DNA of 28,310 bases from Candidatus Hodarchaeum mangrovi (GTDB lineage Archaea > Asgardarchaeota > Heimdallarchaeia > Hodarchaeales > Hodarchaeaceae). A model generated the notes under the pieces. It saw nothing but the letters and a program-made list of their open reading frames with translations, searched no databases and was not told the origin of the DNA. Shown piece by piece: positions 8,295-26,387 of this stretch (positions are counted from its first letter, which is position 1; every line of letters starts with the position of its first letter). The position numbers and the translations under genes are program-made. The stretch is taken from positions 1 through 28,310 of the forward strand of contig JAEOUE010000060.1 in assembly GCA_016839515.1 (NCBI GenBank). The letters are read 5' to 3'.

Positions 8295-8341
8295 AAAGCA
8301 CTCATAACATGTTATCGATTTAAAGATCAAGGAGGAATACA

Positions 8342-9172
8342 ATTATTTTAAATAAACAATATTGTACTCTAACTTGTGTAAGAAATGAAGAAAAAATAAT
8401 TGGCCAAACTATTAAAGCAATTAGTAATCAAAGCATCAAACCTATGCATATAGTAGTAGTTGATGATGGTTCAAGTGATGCCACACCCCGAATTCTTGAT
8501 AAATGTCGAGAGAAATTTCATAATATTACTGTTATTCGTCGCAAAAACCGTGGTTATTCAGCATTAGGGACATATATTATGGCAGATGTTTATAACTCTG
8601 GTATGCAATTCTTACTAAAACAGTCGAATTGGGAGTTCGTTGTTATTATTGGGGCAGATACAGTTTTACCCCCAACTTATATTGAAGATGTGATAACTCG
8701 AATGGGGAAGGAATATGCTGTCGCGGGTGGGAGAACAGATGGTCTTGAAAGGCAAAATCTCGAATATTGCTCTGGTTCTGGCCGAATAATTCACCGAACG
8801 ATAATGAAAAGATTAGGTGGTTATCCTAGATTATATTGTTGGGAAGATAGTGTTTTTAATGTTGCGTGGATGCTAGGATATAAAACAGGACATTTTCCTG
8901 AAATATTTTATCATCAAAGGAAAGGTGGGTATGGAAGTCGCCGTAGCTATATTGGTTGGGGACGTTCTATGAAACAATCCGGATATCATCCTCTTCATTT
9001 AATAGCTCGTTTTCTTAATGTTATAATTCTAGATCGTGAATTGAAACAGGCAATTCAATTTCTAGTTGGATATTTTGCAGAATCTTATCCCAAAGGAATA
9101 GAATGGATTGAATGGCGTAGGATTGATTTTAAAAGACGATTAACAAAAAGAATATTAAGTATATTACCGTAA
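8342..9172 (+). CDS. Glycosyltransferase family 2, extended upstream of ATG 8444 to a probable ATT start
   Basis: The in-frame upstream sequence YCTLTCVRNEEKIIGQTIKAISNQSIKP is the conserved GT2 N-terminus preceding IVVVDDGSSD. GAD(T) sits at the DXD position and WED is present. AGGAGG at 8330-8335 lies 6 nt before ATT 8342. Confidence 0.85.
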   Translation: MILNKQYCTLTCVRNEEKIIGQTIKAISNQSIKPMHIVVVDDGSSDATPRILDKCREKFHNITVIRRKNRGYSALGTYIMADVYNSGMQFLLKQSNWEFVVIIGADTVLPPTYIEDVITRMGKEYAVAGGRTDGLERQNLEYCSGSGRIIHRTIMKRLGGYPRLYCWEDSVFNVAWMLGYKTGHFPEIFYHQRKGGYGSRRSYIGWGRSMKQSGYHPLHLIARFLNVIILDRELKQAIQFLVGYFAESYPKGIEWIEWRRIDFKRRLTKRILSILP

Positions 9173-9804
9173 TGCAGGAGTTGAAAACGTTTAAAACAAT
9201 TATAAATGGATTCAAACATGTATTAGCTTTAAGTGCTCATACTGATGATGCTGAATATGGAGCGGGAGGTACAATTGCCCGACTTATCAAGGAGGGGTGT
9301 TTTGTGAGGATGATTGCTTTCTCATGGTGTGAAAATCGTGCATTAATAGATGAATTTGCTAAATCATGTAAGACATTAGGAGTTCAGAGTTACCAAGTGT
9401 TTGATCAAGAAAGAAGAAAATTCCAGCGTGATAGGCAGAATATTCTTGATATTCTAATTAATGAGAAAAAAAAAGAAGACTTTGATTTGATTCTTGTTCC
9501 CAGTCGTTTCGATACACATCAGGATCATAAAGTTATTGCTCCAGAAGCGTTTAGAGCGTTTCGTGAGGCTTCAATTTGGGGTTATGAGCTTTCTCACAAT
9601 ATTATGCTTGCCCATAATTTATGTTATGTGACATTAACAAGAGAAAATGTTCAAATGAAAATTTCAGCGATTAGATGCTATGAAAGTCAAGCTTGGAGAC
9701 CATATTTTACCAATGATATAGTTAGTAATCTCGCACAGCTTCGTGGGGCTCAAGTATCAGCTAAGTATGCTGAAGTCTTTGAGGTCATCAAGCAAGTAGT
9801 TTGA
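9172..9804 (+). CDS. PIG-L/LmbE family N-acyl-sugar deacetylase
   Basis: SAHTDDAEYGAGG (HxDD), HQDH, K..AIRCYESQ and YAEVF. Start overlaps the GT2 stop (TAATG). Confidence 0.9.
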   Translation: MQELKTFKTIINGFKHVLALSAHTDDAEYGAGGTIARLIKEGCFVRMIAFSWCENRALIDEFAKSCKTLGVQSYQVFDQERRKFQRDRQNILDILINEKKKEDFDLILVPSRFDTHQDHKVIAPEAFRAFREASIWGYELSHNIMLAHNLCYVTLTRENVQMKISAIRCYESQAWRPYFTNDIVSNLAQLRGAQVSAKYAEVFEVIKQVV

Positions 9805-12424: not shown

Positions 12425-14434
12425 TTAGTGTTTAAACTGATTTATAATAGTTTCAACAATTCTTTCTGATGCTTTCCCATCAACTTTAAAAGCGTGCTCA
12501 GTTAAAAACTCCTGAAGAAATTTTTCATATTTAAATAAAAATTCAGGATCTTCTAATATCTGATGGGTTACTTTAACAAGCTGTTCTGGCGTATTTAACT
12601 CTAAAATCCCCTCTGATTTCAGAAAGCGAAGAGAACTTTGTCTTTTAGTAAAATTAACAACTCCTACTGGCTTACCTACAACCAAAGCGTCTAAAATCGT
12701 TGTTGAATGTTGTGAGATAAAGACATCACATATTTTTAAGATGGAAAGGATATTTTGATCTTTAATGATTCGAACTGGTATTTTAGCTTCTTTTTTGAAA
12801 AATTCATATTGTGATAGGTCCTCACGTGGATGAACCTTGATAATTAATTGAATATTAGATTGTTGATTTGCGAAGCTAATTAATGTATGAATAGGAGCAA
12901 TTGCAGTTTCAAAAAAATCAGGTTGAGTTCCAAAGACTATTATTTTTTTATTTGGTGATAAATTTAGTTTTTTAATAATGTCTTCATTATTTATTTTATC
13001 CATAAGAGCGCTTAAAGAGTCATAAGTTGGATTGCCAGATATTATTACATTTTTCTTATCATAACCCAGCTTTAAAAGTAATTGTTCATAATAGGGACCA
13101 TAAACAAATGTCTTGTCTGGAGTAAGTGGAGGAACAAAAGTAGGATCATCTTGATAATCTACTGGCTTATTGGATCCAATATCAAGTTCTGTAAAAAAAC
13201 CATGCTGTAAAGCGAAAGAAGACACATTTATATTCTCCCTAGCACAAAGAGTAAGGGCTTTCCCAAAAGTAAAAAACTCGTTGATAAATAATATGACCTT
13301 TGGATTAATGATTTTAATTAAGCTATTGAATGTTGCTTTCCATTTTAATCCTAGGGGAATATATGCTTTTAGATACCACAAAATCCGTTTTCGGATAATA
13401 TTAGAAAATACGATTTCTGAATAAAGAAATACTTCCTCTGTAATTAATTCTTGTTCAAGTTTGTTATATTGCTGTTTAAAAAAACTGAGCTCTTTCTTAT
13501 ACTGCTTTTTGGCATTTTTATCGTTATAAGTATCAAATATTACTAATATTTTACCTCCAGCATTCTCATTCTTTGCTTTAACTACTTTTAAATCTTTTCT
13601 GATGTCATTGACTTTAAAAATCTCAACAATTGGACTTAAATCATGCTTTCTCAATTCATTTGTTATATTTTCGAAATAATAGTCACCAAGCTCAAATTGG
13701 TTGGTATTTTTATTATAATATGACCTCCAAGATACAGAATTTGTTATAATCGCTACACATGAGTCTATTTTTTCTTTATTAAGTGAATATATTCTAGATA
13801 TTATTTTTCCCCAAAGTTCAAACAATTTTTCCCTCAGAAATAAGAAATAAACTCCAAACCACCATTTGAATTTCATTAAAATATTCTTTTTAACTCTAAA
13901 AGAGAATTTTGGTTTTATCTCAAGAAATTTCTCTGATGAACTAAAAACTTGAGGGATAAGGTTTTCAAGGATACCTGATTCATCATACCATATGATTTTT
14001 CTTGGAGAAAGGTTTTTCTCTATTCCTTGAAGAATTTTTATCTGGAAGAATATTTCAAAGATTTCAAAACGAATACGACGATCAATAAACCACCAAAAAG
14101 AGTTTTGACGATAATTTAGAGTATCAAAAATAGATCCACTTCTAAAAACCCATTTTGAAACCCAATTTCTTGTTTCATCTTCTATACTCTCTTGGTCTTG
14201 TGTTAAATAAATATTTCCAGTTTCATGTTGAATATGATGCTTTGTAAGTGAATTATCTGAATTTAAATTAGTAGAAATTACAATATAAGAACTATTTTCT
14301 TTTTGTTGAGCTTCTTTTATCATTTTTAGAATTTTAGAATGGTTTATTTCTGATCCAATTAGAAAAAGCTCTTCAATATTTTTTTCACTCATTTGTATCA
14401 ATTTTTTATTTTTTAAATTAGCAAGATCAATCAA
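12425..14434 (-). CDS. GT-B surface-carbohydrate transferase (CDP-glycerol glycerophosphotransferase-like / candidate nonulosonyl transferase)
   Basis: C-terminal half has ALQHG, PDKTFVYG, GNPTYD, IIKVHPRE, HSTTILDALVVGKPV and DGKASERIV. TTG start overlaps the asnB stop. Confidence 0.6.
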   Translation of the reverse strand: MIDLANLKNKKLIQMSEKNIEELFLIGSEINHSKILKMIKEAQQKENSSYIVISTNLNSDNSLTKHHIQHETGNIYLTQDQESIEDETRNWVSKWVFRSGSIFDTLNYRQNSFWWFIDRRIRFEIFEIFFQIKILQGIEKNLSPRKIIWYDESGILENLIPQVFSSSEKFLEIKPKFSFRVKKNILMKFKWWFGVYFLFLREKLFELWGKIISRIYSLNKEKIDSCVAIITNSVSWRSYYNKNTNQFELGDYYFENITNELRKHDLSPIVEIFKVNDIRKDLKVVKAKNENAGGKILVIFDTYNDKNAKKQYKKELSFFKQQYNKLEQELITEEVFLYSEIVFSNIIRKRILWYLKAYIPLGLKWKATFNSLIKIINPKVILFINEFFTFGKALTLCARENINVSSFALQHGFFTELDIGSNKPVDYQDDPTFVPPLTPDKTFVYGPYYEQLLLKLGYDKKNVIISGNPTYDSLSALMDKINNEDIIKKLNLSPNKKIIVFGTQPDFFETAIAPIHTLISFANQQSNIQLIIKVHPREDLSQYEFFKKEAKIPVRIIKDQNILSILKICDVFISQHSTTILDALVVGKPVGVVNFTKRQSSLRFLKSEGILELNTPEQLVKVTHQILEDPEFLFKYEKFLQEFLTEHAFKVDGKASERIVETIINQFKH

Positions 14435-16313
14435 AGAATAAAGTTAGCCATGTATTTAGACACGCAACCCTAAATAAAAACATAATATCACTGGTTTTCA
14501 AATTTTTCCGATTGTGATAAAGGTTTAAGACCTTTGTTTTATCCACATAATTTTCTAACATATAATGATTATTTTCCTTCAAATTGGCTATGAATTGAAG
14601 ATCATCCTCTTTTAACCATTTAGTCTCTGGAACTGCAAATCCAATTTTATCACGACGATTTAAAATAGGTTGAGGAGTTATATTTGCCATAGCTTCTCTA
14701 AAAATCCATTTTGTTGTACCTTTTCTAATAAGATAATCTGAGGGAAGAGCTAATAAATACTTAACCAATTTATAATCTAGAAATGGAACACGAACCTCAA
14801 TTGAAAACGCCATAGAATTACGTTCATCAAATCTTAACATATGTTGAAAATTTTCTGTTAAATTCTTCTGTAATGCACTATTTAATGTATTCCTTCGTAA
14901 CCATAATGAAGGTAATCGACGTTTAGAATATTTTTGAATAAAATCCCTATTAAGATACTTTCTTATACCTCTTTCTCTTAGTACAAGTTTTTCATGAAGA
15001 TAAATGGGTAATAATTGAATAAGAAATGATTTTATGCTTCTTTTGTATTTGGTCTCTCGTATTTCGGTGAGGAAAGTTTTCCAATGAAATTTTTTAAATA
15101 ACTCAAAGAAATAATAAGCCGTTAGAGGAAAATAACCCGCCAATATTTCATCAGCACCCTGACCATTCAATAATACTATGGTACCTCTTTCAGATGCAAC
15201 TCTCATGACACAATAACTCCCAAAAGCGGATAATCCCCCTACTGGTTCTTCTTGGTGCCAAATAAATTTTTCAAAATCCTTATTTATATCCAAAACAGTC
15301 GGAGTATATGAATGATTTTTAAACATTGTATTTTGAGTTATTATTTTTACAAATTCCTCCTCCGAAAAGGAAAAAGTTTTATCAAAGGCAATAGAAAAAG
15401 TTTCGAAATTCATTCTTTGTTCTTCTGAGATAATCATATTAACGACTGAAACAATTGAGGAAGAATCAATACCACCACTTAAATTTGAACCAACAGAGAC
15501 ATCACTTCGTAATCTCAAACGTACAGCATCAATAAATAAGTCCTGAACAGTTTTAATATGCTCTTCACAAGATTTTGTATTAAAACCATCTGAGTTTTTA
15601 AGATTCTGAACTTCTTTACCTAGATTCCAATATTTATAAAATTCTAATTTTTGATTGAATTCAAATATACTATAAGAACCAGCTGGAAAACGATGGATTT
15701 CTTTAAAGAATGTCTCATCAGTGCGATCAAGGCTCCCCTCGTTTAAAAAATCCCATATCAAAGTGTTATTTGGCGAGATTTTCTCTTCTCTTAGTTGGAT
15801 GATTGGTTTCATTTCTGAGGAGATGATTAAATGCTCTTTATAGTATGAGTAATATAAGGGTTTGATACCAAATCGGTCACGAGCAATAAAAATTTCTTCT
15901 TTCTGTTTATCTAAAATGATAAACGCAAACATCCCGTTTAATTTTGATAAAATTTCTTTTCCAAAGATTTTATACCCGTTTAACAAAACTTCTGTATCAC
16001 TACTACTAAAAAATTGTTCACCTTGAGCCAAAAGCTCCTCTCGTAATTCTATATAATTATAAATCTCCCCATTATAGATTATTGTAAACCTATTGTCAAT
16101 AGAACTCATTGGTTGAATGGCATTATCAGAAAGATCAATAATCGCCAACCTATGATGGCCTAGGATAATAGATTGATCTGAATATTTATTGGACAGAAAT
16201 TTTTCAGTTCTAACAGCATCAGGGCCTCTATGTTTCATTTTATCAAGGGAATCAAGAAAAATATCTAATGCAGGATAATTTTTAGAACCTATAACAGCTA
16301 ATATTCCACACAT
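14427..16313 (-). CDS. asnB: Asparagine synthase (glutamine-hydrolysing)-like amidotransferase, probably sugar/uronate amidating
   Basis: MCGI N-terminal nucleophile at 16313 with GGAAGGAGA SD, plus HRGPD, HHRLAIIDL, YNGEIYNY, RDRFGIKPLY, LSGGIDSS, GQGADE and RVPFLD. The ORF-track start at 16400 is too long. Confidence 0.92.
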   Translation of the reverse strand: MCGILAVIGSKNYPALDIFLDSLDKMKHRGPDAVRTEKFLSNKYSDQSIILGHHRLAIIDLSDNAIQPMSSIDNRFTIIYNGEIYNYIELREELLAQGEQFFSSSDTEVLLNGYKIFGKEILSKLNGMFAFIILDKQKEEIFIARDRFGIKPLYYSYYKEHLIISSEMKPIIQLREEKISPNNTLIWDFLNEGSLDRTDETFFKEIHRFPAGSYSIFEFNQKLEFYKYWNLGKEVQNLKNSDGFNTKSCEEHIKTVQDLFIDAVRLRLRSDVSVGSNLSGGIDSSSIVSVVNMIISEEQRMNFETFSIAFDKTFSFSEEEFVKIITQNTMFKNHSYTPTVLDINKDFEKFIWHQEEPVGGLSAFGSYCVMRVASERGTIVLLNGQGADEILAGYFPLTAYYFFELFKKFHWKTFLTEIRETKYKRSIKSFLIQLLPIYLHEKLVLRERGIRKYLNRDFIQKYSKRRLPSLWLRRNTLNSALQKNLTENFQHMLRFDERNSMAFSIEVRVPFLDYKLVKYLLALPSDYLIRKGTTKWIFREAMANITPQPILNRRDKIGFAVPETKWLKEDDLQFIANLKENNHYMLENYVDKTKVLNLYHNRKNLKTSDIMFLFRVACLNTWLTLFFD

Positions 16314-16611
16314 TGCTCTTTCTCCTTCCAAAGAGTTATTACCTTTGGGAAGTTTAAAGACAATTATATTTTCTTTCTGTATTTGTTGATTATTATCCAT
16401 CTTAAAAAAACGGCGATATGAAGATAATTTCTAATAAACTTTTAACTCAAATGATTTAGATTTTTTTCTTAACAAAAAATGCTTTTCAATAGTGGAGAGA
16501 AATAAAAATCCTTATCTAACTACTAGCTATAATTTATGAATAGGTCTTCATTAAGATCATTTAGAATTAATTCACAGCAACTTATTTCAGTTGAAGAAAT
16601 GAGGCATTTTA

Positions 16612-17868
16612 ATGAGAAAAATTGCGGTAATTACGGGAGCTCGGTCGGAATATGGAATCTTAAGACAATTATTAAATTTGTTAAAAGCGTCTACTGATAT
16701 AGATCTGAATATCCTAGTCACTGGAATGCATCTAAGCCCCGAGTTTGGAAATTCAAGGTTGGAAATAATAAAAGATGGTTTTGACCCAGTAGCTGAAGTT
16801 GAATCACTTTTAAGTACAGATTCTGAGGTTGGAGTAGCTAAATCAATAGCTTTAGGGATTCTTGGTCTTACTGAAGAGTTATCACGAATTCAACCACATT
16901 TTACAATAATTTTAGGAGATAGATTTGAGATTTTAGCTGCTGCTATTGCTGCTGCTCACACAAATAGTATATTAGTTCATATTTCAGGAGGAGATATAGC
17001 TAGCGGAGTATTAGATAATTATTACAGACATATGATAACAAAAATTGCACAGGTGCACTTTACATCTTCTAAGGCAAGCATGGAACGTGTTTTATTAATG
17101 GGAGAAAATCCTGAAATGGTATTTATAACAGGATCACTTGCTTATGATGAGCTATTACACCTCGATACTCCGAAACGAAATGAACTCGCAAAAGAATTAA
17201 ACCTTCAAGAGGAAAAACCATGGGGATTAATGGTTTACCATCCCACAAGGAGTGTTAATGAAAGCAAAATAGAGTTTAATGCTATTCAAGGGGCATTAAC
17301 TAGAGCAATGGAGAAAATTGATTTTCAAATAGTATTACTCTTCCCAAATGCTGATCCTGGAAGCCGTGGTTTAATTTCAGACTTAAAAGAACAAAAGAAT
17401 TCGAATTGGATTATTCATGAGAACGTTTCACGTGAAATTTATATCGGTTTGTTAAAAGAAAGTAAATTTTTAGTTGGTAATTCGAGCAGTGGTATTGTAG
17501 AAGCACCAGCGTTAGGTTTACCTGTTTTAAACATTGGTAAGCGTCAAGCTGGTCGTGAAAAAGGTGGATTAATTGTTGACTTGGAACCTGATCTAGAAAC
17601 AATACTCAATTACATTCTAAAATTTATTAAAGATAAAGAAACCTCCCAAATTAAAAATAAAAGTAGCTCTCCATATGGTGATGGCCATGCAGCACCACGG
17701 ATTTTAAATAAATTATTAGAGATTCCCATAGAAAGGAATGCATATCCCTCAGACTTTTATGATAATACTGATCTTGTATCAGCGTTAAGAAAGATAAAAT
17801 CTTTAGATTTCAAATCCTTTAGTCAAAGAAGCATGTCAGTCTTTGATATTTTAAATATAAAGAAATAA
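16612..17868 (+). CDS. neuC: Hydrolysing NDP-N-acyl-sugar 2-epimerase (NeuC/LegG family)
   Basis: TGARSEYG, VTGMHLSPEFG, LGDRFE, RHMITK, PNADPG, VGNSSSGIVEAP, NIGKRQAGR and YGDGHAA. Confidence 0.92.
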   Translation: MRKIAVITGARSEYGILRQLLNLLKASTDIDLNILVTGMHLSPEFGNSRLEIIKDGFDPVAEVESLLSTDSEVGVAKSIALGILGLTEELSRIQPHFTIILGDRFEILAAAIAAAHTNSILVHISGGDIASGVLDNYYRHMITKIAQVHFTSSKASMERVLLMGENPEMVFITGSLAYDELLHLDTPKRNELAKELNLQEEKPWGLMVYHPTRSVNESKIEFNAIQGALTRAMEKIDFQIVLLFPNADPGSRGLISDLKEQKNSNWIIHENVSREIYIGLLKESKFLVGNSSSGIVEAPALGLPVLNIGKRQAGREKGGLIVDLEPDLETILNYILKFIKDKETSQIKNKSSSPYGDGHAAPRILNKLLEIPIERNAYPSDFYDNTDLVSALRKIKSLDFKSFSQRSMSVFDILNIKK

Positions 17869-17931: not shown

Positions 17932-18639
17932 TTGGTTAGAAAAATAGCATGTCTAGTGGTTCTTGATCTCGATGATACTATATTTCCAGAAATTGATTTC
18001 ATTTTGAGCGGTTTTTTTGAAGTTAGTAGATATATAAGTCAAAAGTCTCATTATGAAGTGGATTATATATACCAAAAATTATCTACATTATTTAATAACA
18101 ATATCCGTAACAATACATTTGATATTCTTATCGAAGATTTACAATTATCAAATATTCAAGTTCAAGAATTAGTTGAATTATATAGAAACCATAAACCTGT
18201 GTTAAAACCTTGGGAAGATGCACTATTTTTACTAGATTACCTTTCAAAATATCCAAATAAGTTTACACTATGTCTGATTTCGGATGGAATCGTTTTACAA
18301 CAAAAAAATAAGATCAAAGCTCTAAAAATAGAACAATACTTTAAAAAGATCATCATAACAGATGAATTAGGGGGAATTGAGTATAGAAAGCCAAACCCTT
18401 TTGTGTTCAATTTATTATTAGATCAATTCAATATATCATCATCACAGTCAATATATATTGCTGATAACCCATTAAAAGATTTTATTGCTCCAAATGAAAT
18501 TGGGATGCATACTATGAGAATTAAAAAGGCAGAAGGGATATATGCAAAATTCGAGGCTCCATCTGAATATATGAAAGCTCAAATAACAATAACTTCTCTA
18601 GACCAAGCAATTCAAGCAATCGAGAGGATTTGTACATAA
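17932..18639 (+). CDS. HAD-superfamily hydrolase (phosphatase)
   Basis: Motif I DLDDT, motif II ISDG, motif III RKP and motif IV ADNPLKDF. TTG start with AGTGAT SD. Confidence 0.9.
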   Translation: MVRKIACLVVLDLDDTIFPEIDFILSGFFEVSRYISQKSHYEVDYIYQKLSTLFNNNIRNNTFDILIEDLQLSNIQVQELVELYRNHKPVLKPWEDALFLLDYLSKYPNKFTLCLISDGIVLQQKNKIKALKIEQYFKKIIITDELGGIEYRKPNPFVFNLLLDQFNISSSQSIYIADNPLKDFIAPNEIGMHTMRIKKAEGIYAKFEAPSEYMKAQITITSLDQAIQAIERICT

Positions 18640-18664
18640 TAAAAATTGCAGGAGAATAAAAAAC

Positions 18665-19690
18665 ATGCCAGCTATCACTGTATTATTCATTCCAGCTGGT
18701 TCTGGAATTGCTATTTCAGGGATAAAAAGTATAAAGAATATAGAAGATATTAAAACCGTAGCTGCTGATTCTGATCCATTAGCAGCAGGATTATATCTTG
18801 CTGAGAAAAAATATTTGATCCCTGAATTTAATAATCCAAAATTCTTCTCTATTATTCAAAAAATTATTCTAAAGGAGAAGATAGATATATTAATTCCATG
18901 TTTGGATCCTCTCCTCGAAATCATAGCTAACTATGGTCCAACAAAACTTGAAAAGCGCTTAGGAGTAAAAATTTTAATATCACCCCCAGAAACCATAAAA
19001 CTTACTAGGGATAAATGGTTAGCTTATAACCGGTTTAAAAATATTTTAAATTTTCCTGAGTCATGGATAGACTTAGATGATGTTCCCAAAGACACTTTTC
19101 CGCTTTTTATTAAACCTCGAAAAGGATCTGGATCAATCGGAGCTACTATTGTAAGGAATCAAACAGAATTGGAGTTTTTTTTCTCTTACCTAGATGATCC
19201 AATTATCTCTGAATATTTAGAGGGAAAAGAGTACACAGTAGATTGCTTAGCTTCTCCAAAAGGGAAATTAATTACAATCATTCCACGAGAACGGATTCAA
19301 TCAAAAGCAGGAATATCCATTAAAGCAAAATTTATGAATGTGACAGATGAGATAATTGAAATCGCTAAAGAAGTAAATAAACAGCTCCATTTTATTGGAC
19401 CTTTTTTCTTTCAATTAAAACAAGGTTCTGATAATACTTTGAAAATTATGGAGTTTAATGCCAGATTATCAGGAACAATGATCTTTTCTAATCTTGCAGG
19501 TTTTAATATTGTTGAGAAAGCAATCCGTCAGTTCAATGACCGAGATAATCTTATTTCAAATAGAACTCAATCTAATCCCTTACTCTTACCTGGCAAAGAT
19601 TTTTTTTATGAGTATGAAGCAATGAGTAGGTACTGGGAAGAAATTCTGATTAAAACTCATGATTTGAAATCTTTGCAAATTGAGGAATAG
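18665..19690 (+). CDS. ATP-grasp ligase (carboxylate-amine ligase-like)
   Basis: DKWLAY, PLFIKPRKGSGSIG, SEYLEGKEYTVD and IMEFNARLSG ATP-grasp motifs. Confidence 0.88.
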   Translation: MPAITVLFIPAGSGIAISGIKSIKNIEDIKTVAADSDPLAAGLYLAEKKYLIPEFNNPKFFSIIQKIILKEKIDILIPCLDPLLEIIANYGPTKLEKRLGVKILISPPETIKLTRDKWLAYNRFKNILNFPESWIDLDDVPKDTFPLFIKPRKGSGSIGATIVRNQTELEFFFSYLDDPIISEYLEGKEYTVDCLASPKGKLITIIPRERIQSKAGISIKAKFMNVTDEIIEIAKEVNKQLHFIGPFFFQLKQGSDNTLKIMEFNARLSGTMIFSNLAGFNIVEKAIRQFNDRDNLISNRTQSNPLLLPGKDFFYEYEAMSRYWEEILIKTHDLKSLQIEE

Positions 19691-19721: not shown

Positions 19722-20777
19722 ATGTGGAATTTAGATTTTAAAATTGGTATGAAACAAATCTCTGATAATTCACCAGCATTTATCATTGCCGAAGCAGGAA
19801 TAAATCATAATGGGGATTTGCAGTTAGCAAAGCAGCTCATTAATAAAGCTTCTGAGGCAGGAGTGGACGCAGTAAAGTTTCAGACATTTATTGCGGAAGA
19901 AGTAGTAACAAATGATGCAAGAACAGCTACTTATCAAAAGGATATTACAGGAACAGAAAAACAAATTGACCTTATAAAAACTTTTGAACTTCCTCTAGAA
20001 GTTTTTGAAGAACTTTCGATTTATACAACTAAAAAGGGGCTGATCTTTCTTTCAACTCCATTTGATCTTCATAGTGTTGATTTTCTTGCCAAAATTGCTG
20101 TTCCTGCATTTAAAATTCCTTCTGGTGAAATTATAAATCCTTTAATATTAAAAAAGGTAAGTAAATATCAGATTCCTATAATCTTATCAACAGGGATGGC
20201 TACTCTTGGTGAAATAGAGGGAGCTCTAAGATATATTCGTCAAAATAATGAAACACGAGTAATTTTACTCCATTGCGTCACAAGCTATCCCACCCCTATT
20301 CATCAAGCAAACTTAAGAATGATTCAAACATTAAAAACGACATTTAAAACAATCGTGGGATATTCTGATCATACTTTAGGAATAACTGCTCCTTTAGTAG
20401 CGGTCACCTTAGGTGCTAAAGTCATTGAAAAGCATTTCACACTGGATAGAAATCTAGAGGGGCCAGATCATAAAGCATCTCTAGAACCAGCAGAGTTAAA
20501 AAATATGGTTAACGAAATAAGAAATGTAGAAGCTGCCTTAGGTTCAGGAATGAAAATTCCTATGGCAAATGAAGAAGAGGTAGCAAAAATTGCTCGACGA
20601 AGCATCGTTGCTGCAAGAAAATTAAAAAAAGGAGAAATTTTAACTGAAGAGAATCTAGCGTTAAAACGTCCAGCAGATGGATTATCACCATCATTCCTCC
20701 CTCTTATTATTGGAAAAGCTGTAACTAGAGAGATTAATAAGGATGAAAGATTATTCTTCCAAGATATAATTTGGTAA
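19722..20777 (+). CDS. neuB: Nonulosonic acid synthase (NeuB/LegI family) with C-terminal SAF domain
   Basis: IIAEAGINHNGD, DAVKFQTF, STPFD, LSTGM, LHCVTSYP, GYSDHT, IEKHFTLD, GPDH and RRSIVA...KRPADG. Confidence 0.95.
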   Translation: MWNLDFKIGMKQISDNSPAFIIAEAGINHNGDLQLAKQLINKASEAGVDAVKFQTFIAEEVVTNDARTATYQKDITGTEKQIDLIKTFELPLEVFEELSIYTTKKGLIFLSTPFDLHSVDFLAKIAVPAFKIPSGEIINPLILKKVSKYQIPIILSTGMATLGEIEGALRYIRQNNETRVILLHCVTSYPTPIHQANLRMIQTLKTTFKTIVGYSDHTLGITAPLVAVTLGAKVIEKHFTLDRNLEGPDHKASLEPAELKNMVNEIRNVEAALGSGMKIPMANEEEVAKIARRSIVAARKLKKGEILTEENLALKRPADGLSPSFLPLIIGKAVTREINKDERLFFQDIIW

Positions 20778-20831: not shown

Positions 20832-21533
20832 TTGGAAATATTGGGTTTAATTCCAGCACGTGGTGGTTCAAAAGGAATCCCAGGAAAAAATATCAGACTT
20901 CTTGCTGGTAAACCATTAATTACTCATACTATTCATACAGCATTAAAATCGGAACTAATTGACCGAGTTATGGTTTCAACTGACTCTGAGGAAATTGCAA
21001 ATATTTCAAAAAAAGCTGGAGCTGAAGTTCCTTTTTTAAGGCCAAATAATTTAGCTGAAGACGATACACCGATGCTTAGTGTAATAAAACATTGTTTAGA
21101 GCAAATGACAACAATGAATTGGCATCCAGATATTCTTATATTATTGCAACCCACGTCACCATTTAGAAAAACCCAACATTTGGATAATGCTATAGAAAAA
21201 TTTCTTGAATCATCAGTTACATGTCTGATTTCTGTTCGAAGAGTGAATGACAATCCTTACTGGATGAAAGTAATTAAAGGAAAATTTATTTCTCCATTCA
21301 TAGAAAATACACACAATTTTTACCTTCGTCAGTCATTACCAATCATATACATCCCTAATGGGGCAATCTATATCTGGAAAACTTCTTATATTTTAAATTC
21401 TAATCAATTATTACCTAATGATACTGTTGCATATGAAATGGATGATTATTCTTCATTGGATCTTGATAATGAGATGGATTGGAAGTTTGCTGAATTTTTA
21501 ATTAAAGAAAATTTGAATAAAATGCTAGAATAA
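20832..21533 (+). CDS. neuA: CMP-nonulosonic acid synthetase (NeuA/LegF family)
   Basis: IPARGGSKGIPGKN, VSTDS, LLQPTSPFR, RQSLP, NGAIY and SLDLD. TTG start with GGTGA SD. Confidence 0.95.
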   Translation: MEILGLIPARGGSKGIPGKNIRLLAGKPLITHTIHTALKSELIDRVMVSTDSEEIANISKKAGAEVPFLRPNNLAEDDTPMLSVIKHCLEQMTTMNWHPDILILLQPTSPFRKTQHLDNAIEKFLESSVTCLISVRRVNDNPYWMKVIKGKFISPFIENTHNFYLRQSLPIIYIPNGAIYIWKTSYILNSNQLLPNDTVAYEMDDYSSLDLDNEMDWKFAEFLIKENLNKMLE

Positions 21534-21566: not shown

Positions 21567-22709
21567 TTGAAAATACCATTATTCAAAATCTATTCTGATG
21601 AAAATGATGTAAAGGCAGTGAGTGAAGTCATTAAATCTGGAATGAGATGGGCAATCGGACCTCCTGTGGCGGAGTTTGAGAAAAAGATTTGTGAATATAT
21701 TGGTTCTAAGTTTTGTGTCGTTTTTAATTCAGGAACATCTGCATTACATTCGTTGATGTTAGCCTATGGTTTCCATGAGGGTGATGAAATAATTGTGCCT
21801 TCTTTTACTTTTATAGCTACCGCAAATGCCCCTCTCTTTGTAAATTCAAAACCTGTATTTGCTGATATCGAATCTAAGACATTAGGATTAGATCCAAATG
21901 ATGTCCTTGAACGAATTACAAAAAAATCAAAAGCTATTCTTCCTGTTCACTATGGTGGGGATCCTGCGAATATTTTCGAATTAAACGAGATCGCAGAAGA
22001 TCATAATTTAATACTAATTGAAGATGCAGCAGAATCTTTTGGATCTACAGTTGATAATAAAATGACTGGGACATTTGGTAATAGCGCTTTATTAAGTTTT
22101 TGTCAAAATAAAGTAATTACCACAGGAGAGGGAGGAGCCATTGTCACAGATTCTGAGGTTTTGTACAATAAATTGAAATTAATAAGATCTCATGGAAGAG
22201 TTGACCAGGGAGACTATTTTTTAAGTTCATTGTCTGGAAATTATGTAGATTTAGGATTTAATTTTCGTTTATCTAATATACAGGCCTCATTAGGTTTATC
22301 TCAATTAGAAAAAGTGGAACGGTTAATATCTATGCGAATTAAGATCGCCCATTACTATAGTCAAAGATTGAATGCATTCAAGGAAATAATAACTCCTCAA
22401 ATACGTCCAAATATAAGACATGTATACCAATTGTTCTCGATTCGCATTCCTTATTATTATCGTGACAGATTAATTGAATATTTGAGTCAAAATCAAATTA
22501 GCTCAAAAATCTATTTTTCACCAATTCATCAGACCTACTTCTATAAAGAAAAATTAAAGTATGATGTACATTTACCAGTTACTGAAACAATCTCTAAAGA
22601 AATATTGAGTCTCCCCATCTATCCTTCTATGACCCGTGATGAACAGGAATATGTTGTTAGGAGTATTGATAATTTTATTAAAAATTTCGAGAGTGATGAT
22701 AAGGTTTGA
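21567..22709 (+). CDS. DegT/DnrJ/EryC1/StrS PLP-dependent sugar 4-aminotransferase (LegC/PglE-like)
   Basis: NSGTSALH, VPSFTFIATAN, IEDAAESFG, SFCQNKVITTGEGG (PLP Lys) and LSLPIYP. Confidence 0.92.
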   Translation: MKIPLFKIYSDENDVKAVSEVIKSGMRWAIGPPVAEFEKKICEYIGSKFCVVFNSGTSALHSLMLAYGFHEGDEIIVPSFTFIATANAPLFVNSKPVFADIESKTLGLDPNDVLERITKKSKAILPVHYGGDPANIFELNEIAEDHNLILIEDAAESFGSTVDNKMTGTFGNSALLSFCQNKVITTGEGGAIVTDSEVLYNKLKLIRSHGRVDQGDYFLSSLSGNYVDLGFNFRLSNIQASLGLSQLEKVERLISMRIKIAHYYSQRLNAFKEIITPQIRPNIRHVYQLFSIRIPYYYRDRLIEYLSQNQISSKIYFSPIHQTYFYKEKLKYDVHLPVTETISKEILSLPIYPSMTRDEQEYVVRSIDNFIKNFESDDKV

Positions 22710-23779
22710 ATTCAGATTATTTTAAGAATAAAGTAATTCTAGTTACAGGAGCAGCTGGATCAATAGGAACAGAACTCGTAAAACAATTATTAAGACTTGA
22801 TCCCAAGGTAATAAGATGCCTTGATATTAATGAGACAGAATTATTCTATCTTGAACAGCGATTTAGATCAGATAAATTGAGGATTTTTATCGGAGATATT
22901 AGAGACGAAAAAAGATTAGAACTCGCTCTAGAAAATGTTGACATTATATTTCATGCAGCTGCGTTAAAACATGTCCCATTATGTGAAAATAATCCTTTTG
23001 AAGCAATTAAAACAAATATTGTAGGAACACAAAATCTAATTCAGGTAGCAAGAGCAGCTAATGTAAAAAAAATTATAACAATTAGTACTGATAAGGCTAT
23101 TAATCCCACCAATGTAATGGGTGCAACTAAACTTCTAGCTGAGAGATTAACTATAGCAGCAAATCTTTATATTGGAGATCGTAATATTTCGTATTCAACC
23201 GTCAGATTTGGTAATGTTTTAGGATCGCGTGGTTCGATACTCCCTTTACTTTTTAATCAAATACGCGATGGTGGTCCAGTCACTTTAACTGATCCAAAAA
23301 TGACTCGCTACATCATGAGAATTGATGATGCTGTGAAATTAGTATTAAAAGCAGCGATCCTTTCTAAAGGAGGAGAGATATTTATTTTAGAAATGCCTTC
23401 TGTCTCGACCGGTGATCTAATTGATGCGGTTATAGAGGAAGTAGCTCCTCGTTTTGGGTTTTCTTCAAAGGATATCAAAGTAAAAAATATCGGATCTAGG
23501 GCGGGTGAAAAAATTCATGAAGAATTAATTAGTGAATATGAAATAACAAGTTCTTTTTCACTTAAAAATGAAGCTATATATATTTTAATTCCTAAAAATG
23601 AATCATATCATTCTAAAATTTTGATTGAGCATCATAAGGCACAAGGTGCCATCATATTGACAAATGAAACAAAAATACTCCATTCTTCTGCTAATGCTGT
23701 CAAATTATCAAAAGAAGATATCATTTCACTAATAAAAACGATTATTGACGAATATCCTAGAGACAATCTTTTCAAATAG
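22706..23779 (+). CDS. NDP-GlcNAc 4,6-dehydratase (CapD/PglF-class SDR, soluble; LegB role)
   Basis: TGAAGSIG, HAAALKHVP, ISTDKA, NVMGATK (MxxxK), VRFGNVLGSRGS and GEKIHE. TTGA overlap with the previous gene. Confidence 0.9.
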   Translation: MNSDYFKNKVILVTGAAGSIGTELVKQLLRLDPKVIRCLDINETELFYLEQRFRSDKLRIFIGDIRDEKRLELALENVDIIFHAAALKHVPLCENNPFEAIKTNIVGTQNLIQVARAANVKKIITISTDKAINPTNVMGATKLLAERLTIAANLYIGDRNISYSTVRFGNVLGSRGSILPLLFNQIRDGGPVTLTDPKMTRYIMRIDDAVKLVLKAAILSKGGEIFILEMPSVSTGDLIDAVIEEVAPRFGFSSKDIKVKNIGSRAGEKIHEELISEYEITSSFSLKNEAIYILIPKNESYHSKILIEHHKAQGAIILTNETKILHSSANAVKLSKEDIISLIKTIIDEYPRDNLFK

Positions 23780-23856: not shown

Positions 23857-24987
23857 ATGGTAGTTACTTCCTTACAAAATTGTATGGGAAAGAAGATGTT
23901 AAGAGAAATATATCAAATAGATGATAAGAATGTAAAATCACATATGAATTTGAAATCTGTTGAAGAAGAGCTGATTAAGTGGTTAGATAGTCACTCTTTT
24001 GATAAAATAGTAATAAAACCGAATTGGGTTGATATGAAACCTTTGACACGAACTGAACTAGATATATTTACTCTAGTAACTAAAATTTGTAGCGAAAAAA
24101 TCAAATCCGTTCTTGTAGCAGACTGTCCTTTGGACAAAACAAATTTTAATAATGTAAAAGCATTCTATAAGTCAGCACTGTCAAATAAAAACATAAAAGT
24201 TCTTAATTTATCCAATGATGAGTTTGAAACAATTGATCTGGGAGAAAAATCGTTATTCATGCCTTTGATTGAAGTTGGAATTAAAAAATTCATGATGGGA
24301 AGTCAAAGGACAACTCCCCAGAAATATCATTTTGACACAAGACATGAATATGGAGTTAGCAAGATAATCTATCAAAGTGAGGGAATTATACACCTTCCAC
24401 GACTAAAAACCCATAGACTAGCTGGAATGACCGGATGTTCTAAATCCTATATTGGAACTGTTGTAAAGAAATATTGGCTTCCTCATTATACACTTGATTA
24501 TGATCAAATGCCCTTACCACGAGCTATTGAAAGACGTCTTAAAATTAAACAAGTGAAAGAAACATTACATCTCCCTACAAGATTTATTCCATATCGTATT
24601 CGCAAAGGTGTCCTTTCACTTTTACATGCACAAGACAAAATTGACTCGTATCTTCTTGGTGCAGCTTGGGAGGGAAATGATACAATCTGGAGAACCATAG
24701 ATGATTTATTATTAATATACAAACGGCATCATCAATTTTACATTCTTGATGGTCGTGTAGCGGGACAAGGAGAGGGACCACTCTTACCAGACCCCTTAAT
24801 ACTTGATAAAATCTGGACTGGTATAAATCCGATAGCTATTGATAATGTTGGTTCCTTAGCATTAGAAGAAGCAAAAGCAAAGGCCCCTACTAGATGGACC
24901 TCCCCCTATTCACATAACAGAATAAAATTACTTCAATATTTTGTCACTGGTGATGCCTCACCAGTCAAAGAATATATTGAGAAGTAA
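23857..24987 (+). CDS. DUF362-family protein
   Basis: IVIKPNWV, VLVADCP, HLPRLKTHRLAGMTGCSKSYIG, ILDGRVAGQGEGP and NPIAID. The start may be a later ATG (about 23896). Confidence 0.8.
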   Translation: MVVTSLQNCMGKKMLREIYQIDDKNVKSHMNLKSVEEELIKWLDSHSFDKIVIKPNWVDMKPLTRTELDIFTLVTKICSEKIKSVLVADCPLDKTNFNNVKAFYKSALSNKNIKVLNLSNDEFETIDLGEKSLFMPLIEVGIKKFMMGSQRTTPQKYHFDTRHEYGVSKIIYQSEGIIHLPRLKTHRLAGMTGCSKSYIGTVVKKYWLPHYTLDYDQMPLPRAIERRLKIKQVKETLHLPTRFIPYRIRKGVLSLLHAQDKIDSYLLGAAWEGNDTIWRTIDDLLLIYKRHHQFYILDGRVAGQGEGPLLPDPLILDKIWTGINPIAIDNVGSLALEEAKAKAPTRWTSPYSHNRIKLLQYFVTGDASPVKEYIEK

Positions 24988-25076: not shown

Positions 25077-26387
25077 TCAAATGTGCAGTTTAATAACCAT
25101 TCGCTTTCCACTGGATTCTAAAGGAATACTAGTTACTTCTTGAATTTTAACCTTCAATTCCTTATCTATTAAAGACTCAATTCCTTGAATTGTTTTTTGT
25201 CTTATTTCAGGTGTAAATCGACTTAAAGGAACAACTTTTATCACTAATGAATCTTTATATTGATTTACCTGAAAATCCTGAATATAAGGACCATAGTCTT
25301 CAAAAAAGGAATTAAAGAATAAATAGGAAACTTTTTTACCTGAAGGTAGCGTTATAAAATCTGTGACTCTTCCTATGATTCTAGATAATAACTTGGAGGA
25401 TTTACCACAATTACAGGTAGAAGTAGAAAATTCAGCAAGATCTCCTGTATCATATCTGATAAAAGGCATCGAAAAATTATCTAAGCAGGTTAAAATTAAC
25501 CTACCAACATTATTGTCAGTATTTAGAGAAGGATCATGGACAATTTCTACTATAAAACTCTCTTCTATAATATGAAGACCATTGTGGCTTTTACATTCTC
25601 CAGCAACTAGTCCAAATTCTCTAGAACCATATTGATCAAATATTGGAGCATTTAAATTAGATTCAATCACCTTTCTCTGTTGCTTAGTAAGAGTTTCAGA
25701 AGTTGTAATGACACCTCTGATACCTGTAAGTTTGATTTTGCTCTTTTCAACGTATCTTGCGAGTTTTAGGATTGCTGAAGTATATCCATAAATAAAATGA
25801 GGCTTGAAGGATAAAATTTTTTTTAGCTTATTCTTATCTTCCATTTCCCATGCCAATATACATACTCTTTTCCTAAAAATACGGTTAATAATTCTTAATA
25901 GAAACGAATTTGGGCAATGACCAACTATCTGAAGCATCCGATCTTTATTTTTTTGATATCCAATCCAATCTTGGAAATAAAGATCATTTGCTCCACGAAC
26001 TAGCCCAAAATGACGATCATTACAAAATTGAAAAGGTTCCCCAGTAGAACCAGAAGTACTATGATATACCCAGTCATCCTCAGACATATTTTGAGCGATA
26101 AGATCTGATAAGTGATTTTGACAGATTTTTTTGGTAAGAATAGGTAAATTTGACAAATTTTCAATAGTGAAATCGGTAGAATCGAAATTTTGGATCTTAA
26201 ATAATTTCGAATAATACGGAACATTCATCTGAGCGTGCAAAAGTAATTTTTGGAGTTTTTTTCGTATGATATAATCCAATTCAGGTCTTGGAAGAGATTT
26301 ATTTTCCTTTAAACCATTTAGAATCTTTTTCCTAAATTTTCTGTCATTAAGGTATTTTTTAATTCCTTTGATTCCACGATAGCGCAT
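25077..26387 (-). CDS. Phenylacetate-CoA ligase family (PaaK/CapK-like) adenylate-forming enzyme
   Basis: NVPYY, LPILTK, STSGSTGEP P-loop, DQYGSREFG, PFIRYDTGD, GRVTD and C-terminal SGK. Confidence 0.88.
   Translation of the reverse strand: MRYRGIKGIKKYLNDRKFRKKILNGLKENKSLPRPELDYIIRKKLQKLLLHAQMNVPYYSKLFKIQNFDSTDFTIENLSNLPILTKKICQNHLSDLIAQNMSEDDWVYHSTSGSTGEPFQFCNDRHFGLVRGANDLYFQDWIGYQKNKDRMLQIVGHCPNSFLLRIINRIFRKRVCILAWEMEDKNKLKKILSFKPHFIYGYTSAILKLARYVEKSKIKLTGIRGVITTSETLTKQQRKVIESNLNAPIFDQYGSREFGLVAGECKSHNGLHIIEESFIVEIVHDPSLNTDNNVGRLILTCLDNFSMPFIRYDTGDLAEFSTSTCNCGKSSKLLSRIIGRVTDFITLPSGKKVSYLFFNSFFEDYGPYIQDFQVNQYKDSLVIKVVPLSRFTPEIRQKTIQGIESLIDKELKVKIQEVTSIPLESSGKRMVIKLHI

Follow-up and report, generated by a model that had tools for sequence, protein, structure and literature searches.

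An ATP-grasp ligase and a HAD hydrolase as a candidate N-acylation module in the legionaminic-type operon of an Asgard archaeon

Introduction

In many microbes the surface glycans, flagella and pili end in nonulosonic acids or bacillosamine-type sugars, whose N-acyl groups set the recognition of these structures by antibodies, phages and host lectins. How is such a group attached when the biosynthetic operon lacks the usual N-acetyltransferase? This question is raised by a 28,310-nucleotide stretch of DNA from Candidatus Hodarchaeum mangrovi (Asgardarchaeota; GenBank assembly GCA_016839515.1, contig JAEOUE010000060.1, positions 1 to 28,310, forward strand), here called the window, which is one whole contig of an assembly of 4.0 Mb in 348 contigs that is 91% complete. 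It holds an operon for a legionaminic-type sugar in which the genes for a HAD hydrolase and an ATP-grasp ligase (17932..19690) are found instead of an acetyltransferase gene. Here, we show using open reading frame (ORF) calls, family models, structure models, related loci and profile searches that these two genes travel together in archaea and bacteria. We cautiously favour the reading that they encode a two-enzyme module which replaces the LegH/PglD N-acetyltransferase and N-acylates the sugar of a legionaminic-type pathway independently of coenzyme A (CoA).

The genes for non-acetyl groups such as glyceroyl and glycolyl were termed "a major challenge" in 2017 (PMC5378307), and the HAD/ligase module is a concrete two-gene candidate for them. 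Published sources are cited here by PubMed Central (PMC) number.

Results

The operon is a run of seven genes on the + strand with intergenic gaps of 63, 25, 31, 54, 33 and -4 bases (ORF calls, Pfam and NCBIfam), the last being a 4-base overlap shared by the aminotransferase and dehydratase genes. It opens with a NeuC/LegG-type hydrolysing nucleoside-diphosphate (NDP)-sugar 2-epimerase (16612-17868; TIGR03568 367.6 bits, cut-off 235.9; Epimerase_2 9e-74). The HAD-IA phosphatase-type hydrolase (P0001; 17932-18639; HAD_2 5.2e-17) follows, and then the 341-residue ATP-grasp amide ligase (P0002; 18665-19690), which is of the PRK12767 / ATPgrasp_Ter / PylC-like_N type (ATPgrasp_Ter 3.1e-25; PRK12767-type 158 bits); the interval 17932..19690 begins exactly at the start of the HAD gene and ends with the stop of the ligase gene, and both frames are open. 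Downstream lie a NeuB/LegI-type nonulosonate synthase (19722-20777; TIGR03569 444.4 bits, cut-off 399.65; PseI model 315.1 bits, below its cut-off of 340.25), a cytidine-monophosphate (CMP)-nonulosonate synthetase of the NeuA/LegF/PseF cytidylyltransferase family (20832-21533; CTP_transf_3 5.2e-29; PseF model 169 bits, below its cut-off of 205.7), a DegT/PglE/LegC-type 4-aminotransferase (21567-22709; DegT_DnrJ_EryC1 1.6e-111) and an NDP-N-acetylglucosamine (GlcNAc) 4,6-dehydratase of the PseB/PglF/FnlA family (22706-23779; Polysacc_synt_2 2.2e-101; PseB model 300.5 bits, below its cut-off of 407.75). A preliminary description of this DNA, made from the sequence alone, had given the order neuC-HAD-ATPgrasp-neuB-neuA-aminotransferase-dehydratase on a single strand, and the ORF calls, Pfam and NCBIfam all agree with it, no gap being longer than 63 bases.

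Because NeuC and NeuB are present instead of PseG and PseI, as judged by model scores, the operon points to a legionaminic-type rather than a pseudaminic sugar. Five of the six steps of the canonical CMP-legionaminic pathway (LegB/PglF, LegC/PglE, LegH/PglD, LegG/NeuC, LegI/NeuB and LegF/NeuA) are encoded in it. The canonical pathway has a LegH/PglD/NeuD step, whereas the window operon has the HAD hydrolase and the ATP-grasp ligase instead.

That the operon has no LegH/PglD/NeuD or GNAT acetyltransferase, as the same description stated, held for the window and, at the cut-offs of the LegH/PglD/NeuD and PseH families, for the assembly. No GNAT or PglD-type acetyltransferase was found among the 22 window proteins (Pfam) and six leftover ORFs. 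The only hexapeptide protein of the window, and hence its only possible stand-in acetyltransferase, is a hexapeptide-repeat acyltransferase (7392-8294, + strand) that we judge not to be PglD/LegH-like: its best NCBIfam models are those of the WcaF/LacA/WbbJ/Maa O-acetyltransferases, each below cut-off. The LegH/PglD/NeuD N-acetyltransferase family is represented by TIGR03570 (the PglD N-terminal domain plus a left-handed beta-helix), which this protein matches over residues 142-188 only, 47 residues, at 51.9 bits with a cut-off of 160.8. Nowhere in the whole assembly was that cut-off reached (best 60.6 bits), the 15 weak matches being confined to the C-terminal beta-helix part of the model, nor was the PseH cut-off of 93.1 (best 58.1 bits). 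The hexapeptide gene forms a tight three-gene run on the + strand (7392-9804) with a glycosyltransferase family 2 (GT2) gene and a PIG-L/LmbE-type de-N-acetylase gene (9172-9804; PIG-L 5.3e-12; 80.4 bits against a hidden Markov model (HMM) from the PIG-L genes of related loci), the GT2 stop and the PIG-L start sharing base 9172. This run, in which the PIG-L gene lies 8 kb from the HAD/ligase pair, may serve on its own, outside the nonulosonate pathway, to transfer GlcNAc, deacetylate it and re-acylate it.

Does the same replacement recur where related ligases occur? Using a 35-sequence ligase alignment, we fetched 80 loci from one-genome-per-species contigs, called the neighbouring ORFs, compared them with the window proteins (BLAST), clustered them, named the clusters by Pfam, built HMMs and scored all loci. 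A quick maximum-likelihood tree of 79 ligases contains three kinds. The window ligase falls in clade 1, which comprises the window and 14 loci (15 rows; Shimodaira-Hasegawa-like approximate likelihood ratio (SH-aLRT) support 95) with ligases 38-58% identical to that of the window. Its members come from Promethearchaeota, two haloarchaea, Nanoarchaeota, Patescibacteria/Saccharibacteria, Thermosipho, Syntrophorhabdus, Aminicenantes and a spirochaete, a phylum-level spread over Asgard, halo- and nano-archaea, Patescibacteria, Thermotogota, Thermodesulfobacteriota, Aminicenantota and Spirochaetota. An upstream HAD gene is present in 14 of the 15 rows and a PglD-like gene in none; leaving the window aside, the HAD gene lies directly upstream of the ligase gene in 13 of 14 loci, PglD-like genes number 0/14 and NeuB is encoded in 11/14. 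Compact operons of NeuA, NeuB, NeuC, HAD, ligase, DegT and dehydratase genes are found in loci L002, L007 and L013. Three further loci (L004, L010 and L014) lack NeuB and NeuC and are of bacillosamine type, with PglC-like Bac_transf, HAD, ATP-grasp, DegT and dehydratase genes, the dehydratase of L004 and L014 being PglF-like and about 620 residues long.

The missing acetyltransferase is a property of these neighbourhoods and genomes as well. None of the 120 other ORFs within 9 kb of the 14 clade-1 ligases encodes a hexapeptide/PglD protein (Pfam), and none is a counterpart of the window's hexapeptide protein at 7392-8294; one is a GNAT (L006:1314-1886), which adjoins a Fic gene and lies some 5.7 kb away from the ligase. 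TIGR03570 was above cut-off in 0/10 clade-1 genomes, which include two complete haloarchaeal chromosomes and Patescibacteria of 0.7-0.8 Mb, in 0/1 window genome and in 4/14 control genomes. Within the clade of the window, the pair therefore does stand where the N-acetyltransferase is missing, as had been proposed (0/14 loci with a PglD-like gene; 0/11 genomes above the TIGR03570 cut-off).

The second clade (19 rows, support 100), with ligases 26-36% identical to that of the window, has the HAD gene downstream of the ligase gene in 18 of 19 rows and often contains methyltransferases and a PtmE-like gene. Its loci combine a full canonical pathway with a deacetylase and the HAD/ligase pair. The difference in PglD-like presence between clade 1 and the second clade, 0/14 versus 14/19, gives a Fisher p of 1.5e-5, which is no true probability since the rows are related. 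A general anti-correlation of HAD/ATP-grasp pairs with acetyltransferases, which the preliminary description had proposed as a check, stands for clade 1 and is in part contradicted by the more distant clade.

The two genes are also found joined into one. A word-indexed search yielded two HAD+ATP-grasp fusions of 550 residues (P0069 and P0081), 42-43% identical to each of the window proteins, and no larger fusion of P0002. Larger fusions did emerge when 1.84 billion cluster representatives were searched exhaustively with a profile; this search returned 15,618 relatives at E <= 0.001, of which 2,237 passed E <= 1e-30, a large ligase superfamily that includes clades without a HAD partner, and 12 long forms among its best 150 relatives were scanned. 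P0356 is a Bac_transf+ATP-grasp+HAD protein of 762 residues, 31% and 32% identical to the window ligase and HAD, respectively, and has the HAD cap motifs in common with it, and P0255 is an ATP-grasp+HAD fusion. The proposal that the HAD hydrolase and the ligase belong together is borne out by this combination of fusions and conserved adjacency (13/14 clade-1 loci): the arrangement is no accident, and on this comparative evidence the pair is one functional unit. Other fusions of related ligases are a ligase+PIG-L protein (P0302), methyltransferase+ligase proteins in both orders (P0376 and P0386) and tandem ligases (P0254 and P0256), which point to lines of tailoring by deacetylation, re-acylation and methylation. 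Neither the 80 loci nor the 12 long forms showed a PHP or metallophosphoesterase partner.

A sample of 400 genomes from the class of genome G001 contained 26 with a ligase match. In one of these, a gammaproteobacterial-class genome, locus L096 is an operon of overlapping Bac_transf, ATP-grasp, HAD and DegT genes without NeuB or NeuC. PglB2, the Neisseria protein discussed below, was not found in the class-level sample of 400 genomes. A 500-residue frame of genome G019 (L095/L118), from a genome of 71% G+C, was considered as a PglB2 candidate and rejected, as it holds ATP-grasp and DegT and neither Bac_transf nor HAD. When Neisseria ORF8 was sought by a profile search with 36 HADs, the best 120 of 1126 matches included no protein from Neisseria.

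At which stage does the pair act? Since it accompanies the dehydratase and aminotransferase on both the nonulosonate and the lipid-carrier route, it appears to work on the nucleotide-4-amino-sugar. Its presence in loci without NeuB and NeuC means that the HAD hydrolase has no nonulosonate-9-phosphatase role and that the C1 carboxylate is not the general target of the pair; three such loci in clade 1 uphold the earlier argument that the HAD hydrolase is no 9-phosphatase.

The HAD hydrolase has intact catalytic motifs: D12, D14 and T16 (DxDxT), S117 (motif II; T in most orthologues), K153, D178 and D183. In an alignment of 14 orthologues (the window protein and 13 others), D12, D14, K153, D178 and D183 are invariant, and so are the cap residues E20, S26, G27, R59, F63, Y84, H87, P89, Q124 and K127, which suggests one shared, specific substrate; the motifs of this HAD subfamily read IYRxHxP, DGxxxxQxxKIxxL and DNPxKDF. 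The structure model (predicted local distance difference test (pLDDT) 94.9) has a helical cap at residues 20-105, and motifs I-IV together with this C1 cap (sequence, model and the HAD_2 match) place the protein in subfamily IA of the HAD superfamily. Its nearest folds are PH1655, mouse and human NANP, YfnB and phosphoglycolate phosphatase (TM-score about 0.6-0.7, 15-23% identity), the NANP structures 2gfh, 2w4m and 4knw being among the best matches (E about 1e-11, TM-score about 0.7, 18% identity), and its top NCBIfam match is TIGR02253, at 69.8 bits under the cut-off of 169.75. The NANP/HDHD4 and TIGR02253 HADs thus resemble the window protein in HAD-IA fold and cap; the 18% identity and the sub-cut-off score separate them from it, and the genomic context excludes a 9-phosphate substrate. 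The fold searches among solved structures gave no clue to the substrate of the HAD hydrolase, nor did those with the ligase.

The ligase contains the Pfam domains PF15632, PF02655 and PF21360, and its AF2 model (pLDDT 89.4) shows the three-domain ATP-grasp fold. Foldseek ranks 2pn1 (5.5e-25), a protein of unknown function, first, and biotin carboxylase domains, PylC, PurK and carbamoyl-phosphate synthetase after it; the structural look-alikes of the ligase in the ESM Atlas are generic ATP-grasp clusters only. The closest named relatives come from metagenome-assembled genomes of Promethearchaeota and Hodarchaeales (58-59% identity). Residues K117, K150, E189, D193, R208, R210, Q250, E263 and R267 are conserved across all ligase clades, and most of them are invariant in the 35-sequence alignment; among 79 homologues, K117, K150, E189, D193, E263 and R267 reach 93-100% in every one of five clades, and N265 does so in four. 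As in other proteins of this fold, the lysines presumably bind ATP and E-x-N-x-R is presumably the Mg/acyl-phosphate motif. R152, beside K150, is present at 100%, 100% and 75% in the HAD-associated clades and replaced by D or C in the others, a pattern that weakly backs a link between the ligase and the HAD hydrolase. At about residues 294-315, the window ligase has an insertion that is missing from at least 87% of the rows of its own clade and from all rows of other clades (79-sequence alignment), and it begins where the model has its single stretch of low confidence (pLDDT <50 at residues 294-302). The label "carbamoyl phosphate synthase-like" is generic for PRK12767, and carbamoyl-phosphate synthesis was dismissed as a function, with a single ATP-grasp unit and no amidotransferase partner in the operon.

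Discussion

How could a ligase and a phosphatase do the work of an acetyltransferase? The dehydratase and the aminotransferase would convert an NDP-GlcNAc (UDP- or another nucleotide form) to NDP-4-amino-4,6-dideoxy-GlcNAc. The ATP-grasp ligase would then activate a carboxylic acid as an acyl phosphate and join it to the 4-amino group without CoA. This acid may well be a phosphorylated hydroxy-acid, with 3-phosphoglycerate as the best guess and phosphoglycolate, phospholactate and phosphoserine as alternatives. The HAD hydrolase would remove the phosphate either before ligation, from the acid, or after it, from the acylated sugar nucleotide; we favour the latter. The remaining enzymes, NeuC, NeuB and the cytidylyltransferase, would complete a CMP-legionaminic-type acid, for example Leg5Ac7Gra, in which the added acyl group would sit on N7, as C4 of the hexose becomes C7 of the nine-carbon sugar. 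Taken by parts, this scheme is not equally secure: that the module replaces the acetyltransferase is probable, whereas a phosphorylated acid that is subsequently dephosphorylated has a chance slightly below even, and we infer the substrate, the phosphate logic and the product. An obligatory phosphatase partner would nonetheless be best explained by a phosphate on the acid.

Glyceroyl is our favoured acyl group, although as a specific assignment it is tentative and rather doubtful. It is favoured because PglB2, the one genetically defined case of an ATP-grasp domain in the corresponding place, gives a 4-glyceramido sugar, because N7-glyceroyl pseudaminic acids are known and because cells contain 3-phosphoglycerate in abundance. 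Bisphosphoglycerate is the source from which FkbH enzymes obtain glyceryl units. Locus L008 encodes, 4-6 kb from its ligase (14719-16846, - strand), a true FkbH-domain protein (TIGR01686, 322.8 bits, HAD-IIIC domain) whose gene overlaps that of a phosphopantetheinyl transferase, and this may be taken as a weak pointer to glyceroyl. The same locus carries two full NeuC paralogues side by side.

Several observations weigh against this scheme. No feature of the sequences identifies the acid or its phosphate, and no nearest solved fold of the ligase (2pn1, the carboxylases, PylC) acts on a sugar nucleotide, while the nearest folds of the HAD hydrolase include NANP. An N-methyl-glutamyl group has been described on a legionaminic acid (PMC2674064), which shows that a ligase need not use a phosphorylated acid. 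With the assembly at 91%, 9% of the genome may be absent from it, 15 weak hexapeptide matches are present, and another acyltransferase family could do the acetylation. The comparative evidence has its own limits: one clade-1 locus, L008, is without a HAD gene, four clade-1 loci have one flank of less than 2.5 kb or both of less than 5 kb, the locus counts are of related sequences rather than independent events, the ligase tree is the quick maximum-likelihood version, its careful search being unfinished, and the fusion proteins are rare metagenome singletons with 1-2 members per cluster and no name on record. Pairs of the second clade co-occur with a PglD-like gene in 14/19 loci and with PIG-L in 18/19, so that HAD/ATP-grasp pairs can apparently be an addition to the acetyltransferase instead of its replacement, and the window itself holds a PIG-L gene.

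Could the ligase replace the acetyltransferase and yet use an ordinary acid? In this explanation, which we consider unlikely, it joins a non-phosphorylated acid such as Ala, Glu, Ser or Gly, and the HAD hydrolase makes this acid from a phospho-precursor (phosphoserine to serine) or clears phosphorylated by-products. The ATP-grasp relatives do include amino-acid ligases (PylC 4ffl, Ddl), the N-methyl-glutamyl legionaminic acid occurs on Clostridium flagellin (PMC2674064), and methyltransferases are fused to related ligases (P0376, P0386) or adjacent to them. However, common amino acids need no dedicated phosphatase, and a side role would leave unexplained why the HAD gene adjoins the ligase gene in 13/14 clade-1 loci and 18/19 second-clade rows, why the HAD domain is fused at either end of the ligase and why its cap residues do not vary between the domains of life. 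An addition to the pathway is a less probable explanation again, indeed an improbable one: an acetyltransferase encoded elsewhere would make the diacetamido sugar, and the pair would either re-acylate an amine freed by PIG-L, giving a new N5 group, or form an amide between the C1 carboxylate and a phosphorylated amine, on the model of Campylobacter Cj1438/Cj1435. It draws on the second clade with its PglD-like and PIG-L genes, the ATP-grasp+PIG-L fusion P0302, the PIG-L (9172-9804) and hexapeptide acyltransferase (7392-8294) genes of the window and the ligation of a sugar carboxylate to a phospho-amine by Cj1438C. Yet the clade of the window ligase is without PglD-like genes in 14/14 loci and without TIGR03570 matches at cut-off in 11/11 genomes, PIG-L in clade 1 is limited to two haloarchaeal loci that also have a formyltransferase, and L004, L010, L014 and L096 hold the pair without nonulosonate genes, which excludes the C1 carboxylate as a general target; the 7392-8294 protein, moreover, resembles O-acetyltransferases and belongs to its own unit with GT2 and PIG-L.

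A eukaryote-style sialic acid route, with the HAD hydrolase as a NANP-like nonulosonate-9-phosphate phosphatase and the ATP-grasp protein as a sugar kinase, is suggested by the NANP structures among the best fold matches, by TIGR02253 as the best NCBIfam match and by the Asgard host. It is nevertheless extremely improbable: the TIGR02253 score falls short of its cut-off (69.8 versus 169.75), the operon dehydratase gives a 6-deoxy sugar that is unable to carry a 6- or 9-phosphate, and the pair occurs without NeuB/NeuC in three clade-1 loci and L096 and is fused to a phosphoglycosyl transferase in P0356.

The module is not without precedent, and its earlier presentation as an undescribed system does not hold, in view of an ATP-grasp domain that replaces an acetyltransferase domain (PglB2; PMC11130364, PMC6959607) and an amidoligase that works with a HAD (Cj1438C/Cj1435; PMC11800397). 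Neisseria PglB2, described as an "ATP grasp/phosphoglycosyl-transferase", makes the 4-glyceramido sugar GATDH instead of di-N-acetylbacillosamine (PMC11130364, PMC6959607). Encoded in the pgl protein O-glycosylation locus with the linked ORF8, which reviews name without a function, it has its ATP-grasp domain in the place of the acetyltransferase domain on the dehydratase/aminotransferase route to 2-acetamido-4-amino-2,4,6-trideoxyhexose. As in PglB2, the ATP-grasp protein of the window holds the PglD/PglB acetyltransferase place beside a 4,6-dehydratase and a 4-aminotransferase, a likeness of gene arrangement. PglB2 is fused to a phosphoglycosyl transferase, whereas the window ligase is archaeal, free-standing (no Bac_transf fusion), has a HAD partner and feeds a NeuC/NeuB/NeuA branch; PglB2-like arrangements do exist in its family, as the Bac_transf+ATP-grasp+HAD protein P0356 and as Bac_transf/ATP-grasp/HAD/DegT gene sets in L096, L004 and L014.

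In Campylobacter jejuni, Cj1438C, the C-terminal amidoligase of Cj1438, uses ATP to couple glucuronate with serinol phosphate or ethanolamine phosphate, after which the HAD Cj1435 dephosphorylates the amide (PMC11800397). This capsule glucuronamide system follows the same ligate-then-dephosphorylate logic as we propose, from gene pairing and fusions, for the window pair. Its polarity is reversed, the carboxylate coming from the sugar and the amine from the small molecule, and its reaction takes place on the growing polymer; the two Campylobacter proteins are not among the PDB matches of the window proteins. What is new relative to these systems is the free-standing ligase with a conserved HAD partner, its nonulosonate use, its spread across both prokaryotic domains and the Asgard example. 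Our literature search, which did not extend to subscription papers or to the primary papers on Neisseria, found no description of an ATP-grasp/HAD pair in the making of legionaminic or pseudaminic acid; in the matching papers that were read, the term ATP-grasp occurs solely in a reference list or a gene table.

Sugars of the predicted kind have been described: Tannerella forsythia has Pse5Am7Gra, for which an ion of 361.14 is reported; a 350-Da legionaminic acid derivative possibly carries N-glycolyl at N5 or N7, and Vibrio vulnificus is a further source of N7-glyceroyl or N-glycolyl nonulosonates, the genes being unknown in 2017 (PMC5378307). In these N7-acylated nonulosonates the acyl group is on the former 4-amino group, the position proposed for the module, though they are sugar structures and the window offers genes only. 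The phosphate logic, if true, accounts for the phosphatase partner and offers a CoA-free enzymatic route to custom N-acyl sugars. Among the nonulosonate and bacillosamine loci that we examined, the module turns up in many phyla, and the window adds an Asgard archaeal case with what appears to be a complete pathway in one operon. At its boldest, the scheme would be a general CoA-independent "phospho-acyl" N-acylation machine that transfers 3-phosphoglycerate, at the 1,3-bisphosphoglycerate level on the enzyme, to the 4-amino group, followed by dephosphorylation. Such a machine might be the long-sought genetic origin of the N-glyceroyl groups, and perhaps also of the N-glycolyl groups, that legionaminic acid, pseudaminic acid and bacillosamine (GATDH) can carry, might have spread by gene transfer across both prokaryotic domains, and might give this Asgard archaeon a Leg5Ac7Gra-type surface sugar; we hold this wider picture to be speculative and on the whole doubtful.

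Archaeal legionaminic clusters differ in their acylation genes. The cluster of Halorubrum sp. PV6 has a NeuD homologue (PMC6137143), unlike the window operon and unlike the clade-1 clusters of Halorientalis pallida and Halosimplex pelagicum (L009 and L011), which have no PglD-like gene. These two are the only clade-1 loci with PIG-L, and they combine the HAD/ligase pair with PIG-L and a formyltransferase, from which a 5-N-formyl sugar with a non-acetyl N7 group is predicted.

The third clade of the ligase tree (29 rows) has no HAD, and its ligases are roughly 420-445 residues long, with two shorter outliers, including an extra 100 residues at the N-terminus. Most of its loci have a WbqC-like protein (15 loci), a 317-residue protein without a Pfam match (17 loci) and a DegT aminotransferase, for example L016-L019, L024-L026, L030, L032-L039, L041 and L042. 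We regard it as another uncharacterised amino-sugar acylation set.

Further genes surround the operon in the window. A DUF362 protein (23857-24987, + strand; DUF362 5.3e-18; no NCBIfam match) is encoded 77 bases 3' of the dehydratase gene, with uncertain operon membership, and a DUF362 gene is also present in L010. A gene for a PaaK/F390-synthetase-like adenylating ligase (25077-26387, - strand) converges on it, a 60%-identical copy of which flanks the closest related locus (L001:11538-12902); the two proteins could act on a further acid of the same glycan, by activating or modifying it. Divergent from the operon (12425-16400, - strand) are genes for an AsnB-type glutamine amidotransferase (TIGR01536, 438.9 bits), likely a tailoring enzyme, and for a 669-residue BFO_1060-like protein, likely the nonulosonate transferase. 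The latter scores 84.3 bits against the BFO_1060 glycosyltransferase family, below the cut-off of 200, and the family bears a Tannerella locus-tag name; BFO_1060-like genes are also found in L013 and L018. MptE-like (PF01973) proteins are encoded beside the compact HAD/ligase operons of Syntrophorhabdus (L002:7490-8365) and Paceibacterota (L007:14672-15508), and the PF01973 domain also occurs in the Maf-type flagellin nonulosonate transferase of L052.

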